Part shown: piece by piece, positions 52,578-57,554 of the stretch
Layout: every line of letters starts with the position of its first letter
Position numbering within the stretch: position 1 is the stretch's first letter
Source: Escherichia coli
GTDB lineage: Bacteria; Pseudomonadota; Gammaproteobacteria; Enterobacterales; Enterobacteriaceae
NCBI RefSeq assembly: GCF_016026235.1
Contig: NZ_CP065613.1
Length of the DNA stretch: 64,000 nt
Reading direction: 5' to 3' (one strand)
The notes under the pieces: model-generated
What the model was told of the DNA's origin: nothing
What the model saw: the letters and a program-made list of their open reading frames with translations, nothing else
The model's database searches: none
Translations under genes and position numbers: made by a program

Positions 52578-52668
52578 TAATTGATTTTTTCTGTATGTTT
52601 TTGTTAGGTATTAATCAATTTCAGTTTTACTTTCATCTATAACAGACTTATACACGGAATGATGCGTT

Positions 52669-55405
52669 ATGATTACAAAAGATATAGTTGTTAGTGCATA
52701 TAATTGTCTTAAGTCATATGCTTACTACGAAAACTTAAATTTTTTCCTAAAGGAAGAAATCGCTCAATTTGAAGATTCTCTCTATGACGAAAAAATAGAA
52801 AAAGTGGTTGATTTTTTTGAAAATAATAATGACATTAACTTTAATGAGTGGCTAAATAAAATTGATGTTGAATTATTACCAAAAAAAATTGATAGCCATT
52901 TGGATATTGAGCAAACGAGCGGAGCTCTTTTTTTAAGTAATAATAAGACATCAGATGAATACAAAGTAGGTGCTGTAAATTATTTGATCGTTGCTCCTAT
53001 TGAAATATATTTAATAGAAACACTCTGGTCTATCTTTGTTGGTTCAATGCTAGATGACAAGTTTTCTGATTCGGTTTATGGAAATAGAATATCAAAAGTA
53101 ATAAAAAATATTCTAAGAATAGTTTCGATGCGCCAAAAAACTCCTCAAAAAATATCTTTGAAAGATACATTGATAATTATAATAAATGGCGAGATGGTGG
53201 TATCGATAAAGCGATAGAAGTTATAGAAAAAGAGCGAAATGATGTTGCAATTCTTTCTCTGGATCTTAAGGGTTTTTATTATAATATAGATATAGATTTT
53301 GATGCCATTGATAGAATTATTGACGAAGAACAATTAGAAGAAATTAAAGCTCTTTCTATGTTGTTGAATAGTAAATTGAGGTTGATGCATCAAAAATACA
53401 GAGAGAAAATATCTCCATATATTGGTGTGACACATTCAACTCCTTCATCAAAAGGCATTCCAATTGGATTTACTTCTTCTGCCATATTATCTAATTGGTA
53501 TTTAATGGGTTTTGATAAAGATATTAAATCAAAAATTAACCCATCGTACTACGGTCGCTATGTGGATGATATTCTTTTAGTTTTTTCATCCCCGGACATT
53601 AAAAAAGAAGATAAAGGTGAAGAAGTAATAAAATTCATAGAGCGAACCCTTAATGGATTCATTAAACAGGCAGCGAATGATGAGAAAGGCTTTACGTTGA
53701 CCGAGAGTTATCATGAATTACCAATTCAAAAGGATAAATTGATTTTTCATTATTTCAATAAAGATCATAGTTTGGCTGGTTTACAAGTCTTCAAACAAGA
53801 AATTGAGAACAGAAGCAGTGCATTTCGTTTTTTACCGGAAGAACATATATCTAGCGATCTCGATAAATTTGCTTATGATATATTACTTGATGGTTCGGCA
53901 AATAAATTTAGAAGTATTGTAGGTTTGGCAGAGAATGAAACTGAATTATCAAAATATATATCATCACATATCTTAGCTCATAGGCTTTGCAATCTTCCAT
54001 CGAATGAGAATACCTTAAAGCAAATAACGCTGTTTTTTAAAGGTGAAAATTCTCTAAGGTTCAGTCGGTTATGGGAGAAAGTTCTATCGTATACATTAAT
54101 TACAAGAAAATATGGATTTTCAATCGCCTTTTACAAACAAATTAAAGAATCAATTAATAAAATTAAGTGGAAGGAAGGTGATAGTGTTATATCTCCAAAA
54201 CTTAAAAATGGAATGCAGAAATACATTGATATTTCTCTTTGTTTGAATTTGGCTTTGTTAGATTTAAATGTCATTTTAGGTGATAAAGAGCCACAAAATA
54301 GAGCTTTGGAAGGTTTGAAATCTTTAATTAAACAGTCCGATGGAATGTCTGTTCTAATTGAAAGATTTAGAAGCAGTAATTTGATTCGTCATAATCTAGT
54401 GTCTTGGCCTTTAGCTAACTATACTAAATATAAAGGAGATCTTACTGAGGAGAATTTATACAGTAAGATGCATGGTATTCCACTTGATAATGATAAATTA
54501 AATAAAACCCCTAGATATATTCATGCTGATGAAAAGCAGCTTTTCGATTTGATTGATGCTCTTCATACAAGAAAACTACATAAGTTTACGCATGAAAATA
54601 AGCATCACTTAAAAAATTGCTCTGTTACTAAGATAAAAGATAATAAAGCTCTTGAAATAAAGGTAGGAATTGATGATAGAAGTGGTAATGACACAATAAA
54701 AGTTGCGTTGGCAAATATGAGAGTTGAACGTCGTAATATTGAAAGTGCTTGCAGAAAAGATCAGTCTCCAAATTTAAGTTATGAACGACAAAGAAACCTT
54801 TATCGTATTCTCAACTCGGCAACTGAAGAAAATGTGCAGATATTACTACTCCCTGAGTTATCAATTCCTGTGTCGTGGTTACCTTTTATGGCAGCACATT
54901 CAAGGAGAAAACAAATATCTTTGATTTTCGGATTAGAGCATTGGGTTATTAACGAACGCGCATATAATATTTTGGTTGAAATGCTGCCTTATACTTCAAA
55001 CTTTAAACACAAATCCAGTATGTTAGTTTTTCGAGTGAAAAATCATTACGCACCTAGTGAGATTACGATGCTGAATTCTTTAAGGTTAAAAATATCCTCT
55101 CCTAAACCTAGTAAACAACGGTATCATTTGATTAAGTGGAAAAACGTATCATTTTCTACATACAACTGTTTTGAACTGGCTAATATCGAGCATAGAGCAT
55201 TATTTCGTTCGCAGTTGGATATTTTATTTGCTTGCGTATGGAATCAAGATATAAATTATTATCAACATATCACTGAGTCAGCGACACGGGATTTACATTG
55301 TTATGTGGCTCAATCGAATACTTCGCATTATGGCGGTTCTTGTGTTCTACAACCGACCAGTAGCACTATTTCAAATAAGATATATGTAAAAGGTGGGGAA
55401 AACCA
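52669..55405 (+). CDS. reverse transcriptase fused to a C-terminal nitrilase-like (CN-hydrolase) domain, UG/Abi (DRT-like) defence-type RT; frame switches by -1 within 53088-53217 and the 3-prime end is cut by an IS10-like insertion
   Basis: Track ORFs 52669..53217 (frame 1) and 53358..55409 (frame 0, open back to 53088) form one gene. RT motif A AILSLDLKGFYYNID at 53247-53291, motif B KGIPIGFTSSAILSNWYLMGFD at about 53451-53516, motif C YGRYVDDILLVF (YVDD at 53559-53570). C-terminal region has nitrilase-like Glu/Lys/Cys candidates (LLLPELSIP about 54855, FRVKNHY about 55038, STYNCFELANIE about 55167). Strongly AT-rich. Confidence 0.75.
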
Positions 55406-56700
55406 CTGAGGGATCCCCAGAAAATTTAGTAAACCATTATCATATTGGTATACCGTTGCTGTAGAACTTTCAGCCCTGCGTCAAGTGACAGTGTGTTTAG
55501 TATGAGTGGAGAATGTCGAATCACATTCTCCGCCAGTTTTAATAACGAGATGACTCGCCTGTGCTTCACTGTATTTGCCTGATATTTATGATGTATCCCT
55601 TTGTTTTCCAGGCTGAAACCGCTTAACCACATAATGATACTGGCTAATGTTGCGATCAGACTCAATACCGTGACCCGCCCGGATGAATGACTGGCACCAA
55701 ACCGTAGTCCAAATCCCCAGCGAGGATTTTTTTCATCCCTGAAATTTTGCTCAATTTGCATTCTACGGCTGTATAATTTCATTACCTGTTTTGGCGAGAA
55801 CTCAGTACTGTTTGTGAAAATAAACCATGGTGATTTCCCGGCAGTACGAGCTTTAGCCGTCACCGATGGTCTGGTTGCTCTTTCCTTCGAGCGTTTAAAT
55901 CTACGACCTTTAGGCTTACTTTTATAAAGATAAAAATGCCCTTCATGTTGTGCATTTTTATCTCGACCCAGCAGGCCTTCACCTAAATAAATTGCTGTCG
56001 TTGATGCTTTTGTGCCTGAGTCCGACACCTTTTCCCAGCCATTACCAACATTGTAATAATGATTGCCCAGTACCCGGCAAATATAGGTCCAGCCACGGGA
56101 GCGGAGCTGTTGGAACCATCGCCCCTGAAAACCGGCATCTGTAATAACAATGACATCAGTCCCGGGGGAAAAGCACTCAGCAAGCGATTCCAGAAAACGC
56201 TCATGTACATCTGCATTCGCTGTCTGTGATGATGGAACGACACAACTCATCAACGGTAAAGAACGCCCGTCACATGCCAGGCTTGCCCGCAAAAGCTGAA
56301 AACGAGAGGCATGATAAGCACTCCAGTCAATGAGTATCACAACACGAGACATTCCCCGCGTAATCTTTTGGGTAATTCGCTGAAAAATGGTGGAAACCTC
56401 ATTTTGCAAATGTCGATTCCCCAACAGTCGATCCACCCGCTTTATTTTGTTTTTAACTGATGCCGTACCGGTTAAATGACGCCCGATACTGGTAAGTGTG
56501 AGGGAAGCGCCATTTATTACAGCATTAGTTGCGTCAATCAGTGATTTTTGACGGTAAAGATGCAAAGGGGCCAGTATGTTGTTAAGGAAATTTTGGCATA
56601 ATGAACGTGCAGGCATAGTGGTGATCTCCTTGAAATTGTTAGCACAATCAATTAGATCACATCTCACTATGCCTGTCTTGTTTTCTGGGGATTCCTCAGG
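55406..56700 (-). mobile_element. IS10-like insertion sequence (IS4 family), copy 2, inserted into the 3-prime end of the RT-nitrilase gene
   Basis: Same inverted repeats and transposase as copy 1 (only one silent difference noticed, at 34613 versus 55679); flanked by a 9-10 bp direct duplication (g)ggaaaacca. Confidence 0.85.
55426..56616 (-). CDS. IS10-like (IS4-family, DDE) transposase, copy 2
   Basis: Protein identical to the copy-1 transposase; the longer track ORF (to 56715) runs out of the element into flanking DNA and is not the real start. Confidence 0.8.
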   Translation of the reverse strand: MPARSLCQNFLNNILAPLHLYRQKSLIDATNAVINGASLTLTSIGRHLTGTASVKNKIKRVDRLLGNRHLQNEVSTIFQRITQKITRGMSRVVILIDWSAYHASRFQLLRASLACDGRSLPLMSCVVPSSQTANADVHERFLESLAECFSPGTDVIVITDAGFQGRWFQQLRSRGWTYICRVLGNHYYNVGNGWEKVSDSGTKASTTAIYLGEGLLGRDKNAQHEGHFYLYKSKPKGRRFKRSKERATRPSVTAKARTAGKSPWFIFTNSTEFSPKQVMKLYSRRMQIEQNFRDEKNPRWGFGLRFGASHSSGRVTVLSLIATLASIIMWLSGFSLENKGIHHKYQANTVKHRRVISLLKLAENVIRHSPLILNTLSLDAGLKVLQQRYTNMIMVY

Positions 56701-56848: not shown

Positions 56849-57534
56849 GTAGCTTTTGGGAAGGTATTTTGTCATCAAGCATTTCATTTGCAATTATTGG
56901 ATTTGTTTGTAAGGCTTTTTTACAACATATTGATAAAAGAGAGTTAGAATCATTTAAAAATAAGTTGAAATATGAAAGTGAACAGAGAATTAAAGAGGAT
57001 GAACGTGCTTATAATTTTAAAAAAGCAAGAGATCTTGAAATCGGACGTTGGGGGTTAACATTACTTAGTGCTGCAAATGGTTTTTTAGGAAGGCTATGTT
57101 ATATTAAAGATCACAATGACCTATCGTCGGATCAATATTATATTGATAGTACAAGATTCTATCTATGCCAATATTTTTGCTGGGTACATCAATTCAGGAA
57201 AAATAGAGATTCATCTGTATTTTCACCAACTAATGATGAAATGTTAATAACTGAATTAATCAAAAATATTTCTATAGCCCTACGAGAGAACGATATTGGT
57301 TTTCCTTGTATTAGATCTCTTGAACAAAAGTATATAGGTGAAAGCCTTAGCATTGGTGCTGAATGTATGTCCTATAAAGATTTTATCGATTCTAAAGTAT
57401 TAGAAAACTATGCACCTCTAAATGATTTTGTTGAAGCAATTCTACAAAATAATAATAAAGATTATATCGATAAACTCGTTATCCCATTCCAAGATCTCAA
57501 GACCAGATTTGATGCGGCATTACAAAATAAATGA
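56845..57534 (+). CDS. uncharacterised membrane-anchored protein, translationally coupled to the RT-nitrilase gene (candidate partner/effector)
   Basis: 229 aa ORF; ATG at 56845 overlaps the reconstructed RT-nitrilase stop (ATGA); N-terminal hydrophobic helix SSISFAIIGFVCKAF; AT-rich like the RT gene; no family recognised. Confidence 0.6.
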   Translation: MSSFWEGILSSSISFAIIGFVCKAFLQHIDKRELESFKNKLKYESEQRIKEDERAYNFKKARDLEIGRWGLTLLSAANGFLGRLCYIKDHNDLSSDQYYIDSTRFYLCQYFCWVHQFRKNRDSSVFSPTNDEMLITELIKNISIALRENDIGFPCIRSLEQKYIGESLSIGAECMSYKDFIDSKVLENYAPLNDFVEAILQNNNKDYIDKLVIPFQDLKTRFDAALQNK

Positions 57535-57554
57535 TTTTTTTACCTGCGCGCAAT

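Follow-up and report, generated by a model that had tools for sequence, protein, structure and literature searches.

The question raised by this locus is whether an abrupt fall in G+C content beside a tRNA gene tells us what the DNA is and when it arrived. The locus lies in a 64,000-nucleotide stretch of Escherichia coli DNA (contig NZ_CP065613.1; hereafter the window), in which an AT-rich tract, 52578 to 57540, follows the integrase gene of the leuX island and carries genes for a reverse transcriptase (RT) fused to a nitrilase and for a small transmembrane (TM) protein. An earlier note, made from the letters alone, had taken the tract for foreign, recently acquired cargo of the island. We consider it very probable, judging by sequence comparison, that the tract is the cargo of a known defence hotspot, that it holds a UG5-large system which is dead in this copy, and that its low G+C is a stable trait of the RT family and of the hotspot.

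The compositional shift itself is not in doubt. The background was taken from 1-kb windows outside three AT-rich tracts (n=207) and had a G+C content of 51.6 ± 3.1% (mean 0.516, standard deviation 0.031, minimum 0.401). The cassette, 52578-57544 without its insertion sequence (IS), amounts to 3663 bp and has 31.1% G+C (z = -6.7), which agrees with the estimate by eye of about 30% against about 50% in the flanks. The left AT arm (52578-55425) has 31.2% and the right arm (56716-57540) 30.9%; the full interval 52578-57540 gives 0.346 because the transposase open reading frame (ORF) of the embedded ISEc60 (55426-56715; 0.444) is counted in. Likelihood change-points fall after 52552 (log likelihood ratio 51.8; 0.484 to 0.294) and after 57542 (53.1; 0.309 to 0.540), 26 bp and 2 bp from the limits of 52578 and 57540 first drawn by eye. 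The integrase gene has 47.8% G+C, the DNA left of leuX 50.6% and that right of 57541 50.9%. The return to an E. coli-like composition that had been claimed for the IS elements and the right flank thus holds for the flank, but the IS inside the tract is intermediate (44%).

Codon usage and dinucleotides agree with this, and the outcome that would have spoken against a shift, a G+C equal to that of the neighbouring genes, was not seen. G+C at third codon positions (GC3) is 0.21-0.26 in the RT and 0.20 in the TM gene, compared with 0.36-0.60 in neighbouring genes, while GC1 is 0.39 and GC2 0.22-0.33. The proteins, described earlier as rich in N, K and I, contain 33-41% N+K+I+Y+F, compared with 15-25% in their neighbours. 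The Karlin dinucleotide distance of the cassette is 126 (window median 46, 95th percentile 87), which makes it the most deviant segment of the window. The intergenic stretches of the tract are as AT-rich as its genes, and A/T runs of at least 6 nt are six times denser than in core DNA (4.9 vs 0.8 per kb).

As shown in Table 1, the tract is the variable cargo of an int–cos/psu defence hotspot in the remnant of a P4-like satellite. The intact integrase gene on its left shows 88% nucleotide identity to P4 int, and the P4 att core at the 3' end of leuX occurs once in the window; a second core (attR) was sought in the window and none was found. On the right, P4 homology resumes at cos, and the linear P4 record ends at window position 57572. 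The psu gene is 98.9% identical to P4 psu and is truncated at its 5' end, where the first 5 codons are gone (185/190 left). Homology to the intact satellite of E. coli O112ab:H8 breaks at about 58275, and IS1 and IS4 fragments stand in place of delta, sid and the remaining satellite; their coordinates were carried over from the annotation of a genome collinear with the window. What is left is not a complete mobilisable satellite, as delta, sid, cI/epsilon, alpha and, within the window, the second att are missing past psu, while a complete element (int–RT–TM–psu–delta–sid … alpha) was located at leuX in O112ab:H8. The cargo (52553-57544) lies between int and psu and directly adjoins cos. Six sampled satellites with the same psu/cos each have a different cargo (a helicase, another RT, a restriction-modification system, a P-loop NTPase, hypotheticals), and only 32 of the 1,086 genomes having this psu/cos carry the RT cassette. 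In P4-like satellites, the interval between int and psu/cos is a described hotspot for anti-phage systems (Rousset et al. 2022, PMC9122126). The description of the tract as foreign cargo of the leuX island, with RT-nitrilase and membrane-protein genes, therefore stands, and what it had missed is that the island is a P4-like satellite remnant and the site a known hotspot.

RT-based cargoes recur at this slot of the P4 hotspot. E. coli J-8 has a different RT (542 amino acids) with a 246-amino-acid partner in its P4 hotspot (5523-7888 of its locus), and another RT-domain gene was seen a few kb upstream (1-1090 of its locus).

The three ORFs of the tract that show RT-nitrilase homology match consecutive parts of one 958-position PADLOC model, RT_UG5-nitrilase. 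In fragment A, codons 1-145 are authentic and are followed by an out-of-frame tail to the stop. Fragment B comprises codons 231-913, and its homologous frame is open from about 53100; residues 444-682 of this fragment match PADLOC RTasNitrilase. Fragment C, the end of ORF 56576-56848, is the conserved C-terminal tail (codons ~910-958) with the stop. The YVDD motif and residues E730, K791 and C834 are invariant in a 12-sequence family alignment, as are nine residues of the tail (L916 to R955). Homologues carry PF00795 as recorded annotation, and HHpred with the protein of E. coli E101 gave CN_hydrolase at 99.7% probability. The TM gene, whose start overlaps the RT stop, has no nucleotide difference from the O112ab:H8 copy (WP_000094232.1) and adjoins the RT in 5 genera. 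Its product has one N-terminal hydrophobic helix (about residues 7-27 by hydropathy) and an all-alpha AlphaFold model with a pLDDT confidence score of 87.5. A Foldseek search of the PDB with this model gave nothing significant (best E=0.7). An assignment of the partner as HEPN or as a four-helix bundle was rejected, the matches being faint (probability 0.13-0.21).

Table 1. Features of the leuX satellite remnant and its RT cassette, lesions of the RT gene in E. coli copies, and yjgL (positions of the window)
Feature	Position	Strand	Evidence, location or carrier
tRNA-Leu(CAA) leuX	51073..51157	+	ARAGORN; Rfam tRNA 59 bits
attL, P4 att core GAGTCCGGCCTTCGGCACCA	51138-51157		3' end of leuX; exact match to annotated P4 attP core
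P4-type tyrosine integrase, intact	51309..52577	+	Pfam Arm-DNA-bind_3, Phage_int_M, Phage_integrase
Left arm of hotspot cargo	52553..55405	not applicable	31% G+C
RT-nitrilase pseudogene fragment A	52669..53217	+	PADLOC RT_UG5-nitrilase positions 1-150, E=1.4e-83
A6 run (A7 in intact copies)	53103..53108	+	Alignment to intact O112ab:H8 copy
RT-nitrilase pseudogene fragment B	53358..55409	+	PADLOC RT_UG5-nitrilase positions 231-913, 1649 bits; Pfam RVT_1
YVDD (residues 298-301)	53559-53570		Fragment B
Nitrilase residue E730	54855-54857		Fragment B
Nitrilase residue K791	55038-55040		Fragment B
Nitrilase residue C834	55167-55169		Fragment B
ISEc60 (IS4 family), 1294 bp	55406..56699	-	Inverted ends CTGAGGGATCC…GGATTCCTCAG; Pfam DDE_Tnp_1
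RT-nitrilase pseudogene fragment C	56700..56848	+	PADLOC RT_UG5-nitrilase positions 909-958, E=8e-30
RTasTM partner, intact, 229 amino acids	56845..57534	+	PADLOC RTasTM 1-229/229, E=5e-164
P4 homology resumes	57545..57590	-	10 bp past TM gene stop
cos cohesive end GGCGAGGCGGGGAGAGCAT	57553-57571		Differs from the left end of P4 by two mismatches
G+C-rich stem-loop beside cos	57571-57590		Terminator-like match
psu (polarity suppression / capsid decoration)	57736..58293	-	Pfam Psu, E=6.6e-86
Degenerate IS1, then IS4-family fragment	58335..59333	+	Pfam DDE_Tnp_IS1
A7->A6, codon 145			Window, FDAARGOS_943, JNE170426 (other haplotype)
A6->A7, codon 41			FORC_031, 254D-1
T7->T8, codon 48, and IS1-mediated truncation			E1739
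A8->A7 (codon 74) and T5->T4 (codon 202), and IS3-mediated truncation			A19
W174*			M19
IS1 near codon 601			AF14
IS1 at codon 99			FDAARGOS_943
ISEc60 at codon ~913			Window
yjgL ORF, 436 amino acids	29155-30465

From these features the cargo is assigned to the two-gene UG5-large "RT-nitrilase + 1TM" type, a system which, like its hotspot, has already been published. PADLOC scored RT_UG5-nitrilase at 1649 bits and Drt1a at 68.6 bits, and the defining parts of UG5-large are present: an RT with YxDD, a fused CN-hydrolase with a Glu-Lys-Cys triad and a small TM partner downstream. The RT-nitrilase frame is not uninterrupted, being broken by a frameshift at codon 145 and by ISEc60 at codon ~913. 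The system of E. coli E101 was validated as anti-phage with defence measured at room temperature (PMC9122126), and was classed as UG5-large, in class 3 UG/Abi, with the TM protein required (Mestre et al. 2022, PMC9226505). Window 52546-52636 reproduces the first 91 nt of the E101 insert in pFR76 with zero mismatches, a comparison that covers those 91 nt. Like that system, the window cassette places this pair of genes in the int–cos/psu hotspot, and PADLOC covers it at full length; it differs in its frameshift and ISEc60 insertion and in the truncation of its satellite after psu.

Regulatory elements were also sought. A scan of 50900-58700 against Rfam at a permissive threshold returned the leuX tRNA only, with no RT-associated non-coding RNA (ncRNA), in agreement with the literature on class 3 systems. 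The promoter scan gave 17 promoter-like sites, where 22.1 were expected from shuffles, a result made uninformative by the AT-rich DNA. The sole notable item in the promoter and terminator scan was the stem-loop beside cos, which is followed by T's and is conserved in the P4 right end; it could be a shared terminator of psu and the cargo operon.

The copy in the window is predicted to be dead, a state that the earlier note had not noticed: it is a defence gene decayed to a pseudogene, and the satellite remnant around it has been immobilised. When compared with the intact O112ab:H8 copy, the cassette has one deleted A, four single-nucleotide polymorphisms (SNPs) and a 1304-bp ISEc60 insertion (duplication counted). 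The deletion turns an A7 run into A6 and shifts the frame at codon 145. ISEc60 interrupts the RT at codon ~913 and cuts off the conserved C-terminal 45 residues. The element was recognized by its inverted repeats (22 nt, 91% complementarity), its 10-bp target duplication GGGAAAACCA at 55396-55405 and 56700-56709, its DDE transposase, and the 100% match of its 1294 bp to elements annotated ISEc60 elsewhere. At this site of the RT it was absent from all 32 other genomes in the complete E. coli collection. The closest genome, FDAARGOS_943, is an independent assembly with 6 SNPs over 16.6 kb relative to the window; it shares the A6 lesion, is without ISEc60 and has IS1 at codon 99 instead. As A6 is common to both strains, the frameshift is genuine and predates their separation, and as each sister strain has a different IS, the IS hits were later, independent events in an already dead gene. 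The cassette has been resident long enough to decay. The probable order is that the A7->A6 slip killed the frame and that ISEc60 came later, by which time IS1 would already have cut the satellite off beyond psu and immobilised it.

For the ISEc60 transposase, the longest ORF begins in flanking RT DNA, 16 nt beyond the end of the IS (56699-56715), so the listed 429-amino-acid transposase is a fusion made by the ORF caller and the true start is probably internal.

Does the low G+C date the arrival? RT relatives are all from Gammaproteobacteria, those at 62-80% identity from Serratia, Cronobacter, Enterobacter, Dickeya, Pectobacterium, Aeromonas and Pantoea, and those at 42-47% from marine genera and Acinetobacter. 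RT orthologues (44-80% amino acid identity) have 29-33% G+C in 8/9 loci and 39% in Marinobacter, with GC3 in the range 0.17-0.37, and orthologues of the TM partner have 30-34%. The host flanks have 52-63% G+C at 8/9 loci; the ninth, Acinetobacter, has 37%. The RT has thus retained its composition over 20-55% protein divergence, in hosts whose G+C is much higher. The cargoes of the hotspot show the same thing, with 30-37% G+C in 8/8 sampled and 54-56% in the satellite core. Like the RT cassette, gop-β-cII of P4 itself (NC_001609) occupies the slot between cos and int and is low in G+C (35.8% vs 54.6% for the rest of P4), although its genes are unrelated and P4 is complete and mobile. As low G+C is steady across both orthologues and unrelated cargoes, composition gives no date for the arrival. 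It is a stable trait of the RT family and of P4 hotspot cargo to be low in G+C, and not a fading donor signature.

The Acinetobacter locus (5635-16279) is of another kind. Its UG5-large RT has no TM partner and is embedded in a type I restriction-modification operon, with the S/M genes on one side of it and hsdR on the other, a different defence-island context.

Recent spread within E. coli is supported by sequence comparison of another kind. The window and O112ab:H8 share 99.86% identity over the block from the middle of int to psu (51987-58273), whereas the adjoining core genes of the two differ by 1.6% (pepA–lptFG) and 3.6% (yjgR). The cassette was found in 32/5,426 complete E. coli genomes, all at an identity of at least 99.6%, and its E. 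coli copies differ among themselves by no more than 0.2%; the psu/cos backbone is present in 1,086 of the genomes. The int gene is a mosaic, of which the 5' ~810 nt (51173-51986) are ~8% diverged from the O112ab:H8 allele and the part from 51987 on is identical, and three int alleles are linked to one cassette in different strains. This is the pattern expected of cassette swapping, in which recombination, breaking once inside int and once within psu or past it, would carry the cassette from one satellite to another. The view that the tract was recently acquired can be kept as far as this spread goes (99.86% block identity, 32/5,426 genomes), and has to be given up where it took low G+C as evidence of recency.

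The RT gene has been disrupted again and again among E. coli copies (Table 1). It is intact in 18 genomes (9 verified, 9 inferred) and disrupted in 14 (8 verified, 6 inferred), that is in ~44% of carriers and about 7/16 lineages, while the TM gene, wherever it is retained, is uninterrupted. All ±1 indels in these copies (5/5) lie in A/T runs, and of the runs of at least 7 nt in the RT gene 3/4 are hit in some strain. In OZ546925 the A7 run is kept and a separate IS1 insertion lies near codon 601. Because this composition supplies A/T homopolymers and AT-rich targets, the gene is prone to slippage and IS hits. Fewer than 1% of defence genes in P4 were reported to be pseudogenes (2026 preprint), and the cassette contrasts with that rarity. 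Neutral decay and selected loss both fit the present data.

Two side observations concern these copies. AF14 (3399-4167 of its locus) and E1739 (5396) have independent IS1 insertions 5 bp apart and in opposite orientations near codon 601, which hints at a hot spot for IS1 in this AT-rich gene. In JNE170426 (2592-5467 of its locus) A7->A6 lies in a complete satellite and on another SNP haplotype, and may have come about by a separate slippage event, by recombination or through an error of assembly; the ahr gene of this genome is also annotated as frameshifted.

A further reading links composition and disruption: the gene might be switched on and off by slippage in the A/T homopolymers of its 5' third, or these could be the preferred route of selected loss of a costly abortive-infection system. 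It would explain the 14/32 disrupted RT genes with intact TM genes, the A7->A6 change on two haplotypes and the contrast with the reported rarity of defence pseudogenes, and we regard it as unlikely, though not negligible.

Several defence systems with known activity resemble the cassette in part. DRT1 (UG1) of Klebsiella pneumoniae, solved by cryo-electron microscopy (9yfd), is likewise an RT with a C-terminal CN-hydrolase and has a small TM partner, Drt1b, which is optional. Both of its catalytic centres are required, it acts by abortive infection, and its C-terminal tail is conserved and essential (Neville et al. 2026). It belongs to a different clade: the window RT has 958 amino acids, compared with ~1,230, only the RT core (residues 188-341) aligns with 9yfd (PDB E=6e-9), PADLOC gives E=6e-20 for Drt1a and 0 for UG5, and the TM partner has no Drt1b match. 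With 958 amino acids instead of 1,200-1,300, a match in the RT core only and UG5 as its best family, the window RT is not a member of DRT type 1. Sequence searches of the PDB with the RT returned RT cores of DRT1, Drt3a and Drt2 only and no solved UG5 structure. The priming serine of DRT1 (Ser402) is reported not to be conserved in other class 3 RTs.

DRT11 of Sinorhizobium meliloti RMO17 is also a UG5-large RT-nitrilase, in which YVDD and a K-C-E triad are present. Podophages are its targets, as they are those of the E. coli system according to the authors, and it needs both RT and nitrilase, shows an abortive-infection-like phenotype and has no detected ncRNA (10.64898/2025.12.16.694600), with which the absence of Rfam RNAs other than the tRNA in our island is consistent. 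It differs in having and needing no TM partner, and in being plasmid-borne in an alphaproteobacterium of high G+C. Like cas genes inactivated by IS elements (PMC10359306), the RT cassette is a case of a defence gene knocked out by IS, here with different IS hitting one gene independently in sister strains; unlike those cases, the IS followed an earlier frameshift, and loss by selection is a possibility only.

By analogy with these systems, the RT domain of an intact copy would make template-free, protein-primed DNA adducts, the fused nitrilase would be the toxic effector of an abortive-infection response, and neither the conserved C-terminal tail nor the small TM protein would be dispensable. 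DRT5S/L shares protein-primed, template-free synthesis with DRT1 (Neville 2026, PMC13275509). In DRT1 the DNA adducts cause dormant filaments to assemble, the nitrilase serves as effector of abortive infection, and domain-swapped C-termini gate and complete the nitrilase active site (PMC13275509).

How firmly the composition can be read depends on two other explanations. The view of the earlier note, already weakened above, was that the tract arrived recently from a donor of low G+C and still bears that donor's un-ameliorated signature. The 31% G+C, the GC3 of 20-26%, the deviant dinucleotides, the patchy distribution in 0.6% of genomes and the near-identity of copies across strains are all what such an arrival would leave. 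The check which that note had itself proposed, the taxonomy of the best matches, goes the other way: the close relatives (62-80% identity) are all Gammaproteobacteria, and despite 20-38% protein divergence the gene still has 31-33% G+C in hosts whose flanks have 52-63%. Unrelated cargoes in the hotspot are equally AT-rich, and we hold a low-G+C donor to be very unlikely. The low G+C might instead be a by-product of constraint on N/K/I-rich proteins and not a property of the nucleotides. The N+K+I+Y+F share (33-41% of residues) and the low GC1 (0.39) and GC2 (0.22-0.33) agree with that; the third codon position is nevertheless the most depressed (0.20-0.26 vs 0.36-0.60), the intergenic DNA of the tract is equally AT-rich, and unrelated proteins of the hotspot show the same bias, so that protein constraint is the most improbable of the explanations that we weighed.

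The system might also be functional here, with the frameshift a sequencing error or a programmed or phase-variable switch, and with the truncated enzyme and the TM protein still defending the cell. The codons of the catalytic YVDD, E730, K791 and C834 remain despite the lesions, the TM gene is intact, and a lesion in a slippage-prone A run could revert. This is highly improbable given that A6 recurs in an independent assembly only 6 SNPs away over 16.6 kb (FDAARGOS_943), that the ISEc60 insertion is unambiguous and takes away a tail with 9 invariant residues, and that DRT1 loses defence when 8-12 C-terminal residues are deleted (PMC13275509). Two independent IS insertions in sister strains also fit a gene that was already dispensable.

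Some points weigh against our own reading, of a stable low G+C and a dead, often disrupted RT gene. The composition comparison covers 9 orthologous loci and 8 hotspot cargoes only, and candidate causes of a persistent low G+C include an AT-biased mobile gene pool, selection for silencing, and mutation bias; a search of the literature on H-NS silencing of defence cargo gave nothing decisive. Seventeen E. coli copies were inspected, the other 15 calls (6 disrupted, 9 intact) being made from match lengths, and the homopolymer indels seen in single assemblies (JNE170426, E1739, A19) could partly be sequencing errors. Reinitiation at M231 could give an N-terminally truncated protein. The suggested mechanism is transferred from DRT1, where the match is to the RT core only (E=6e-9), and from DRT5L and DRT11.

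Elsewhere in the window, the yjgL region (29155-30700) has 0.325 G+C and is present in 4,817/5,426 complete E. coli genomes, mostly at 80-95% identity only. yjgL is thus an old, near-universal yet hypervariable AT-rich gene, as had been supposed when its signature was called similar but older. A third AT-rich tract lies at 32700-34000 (about 35-39% G+C), where the adjoining same-strand ORFs 33090-33869 and 33894-34313 resemble one split gene. Just upstream of leuX, the idn (L-idonate/gluconate) cluster (44768-49857) is present in the window and in FDAARGOS_943 and not in O112ab:H8, in which yjgR is directly next to ahr; it is a presence/absence polymorphism.

The locus is a textbook case of a sharp G+C drop beside a tRNA-linked integrase that marks mobile cargo. 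It also carries a caution for genome scans, as the low G+C of this hotspot is constant and is no clock for recent acquisition, and this defence system should not be counted among those of the strain. At the population level there is a modest lead, a disruption of ~44% of copies through homopolymer slippage and IS hits that is favoured by the AT-rich composition. If the switch reading were true, AT-richness would be functionally tied to silencing and to rapid, possibly reversible, inactivation.

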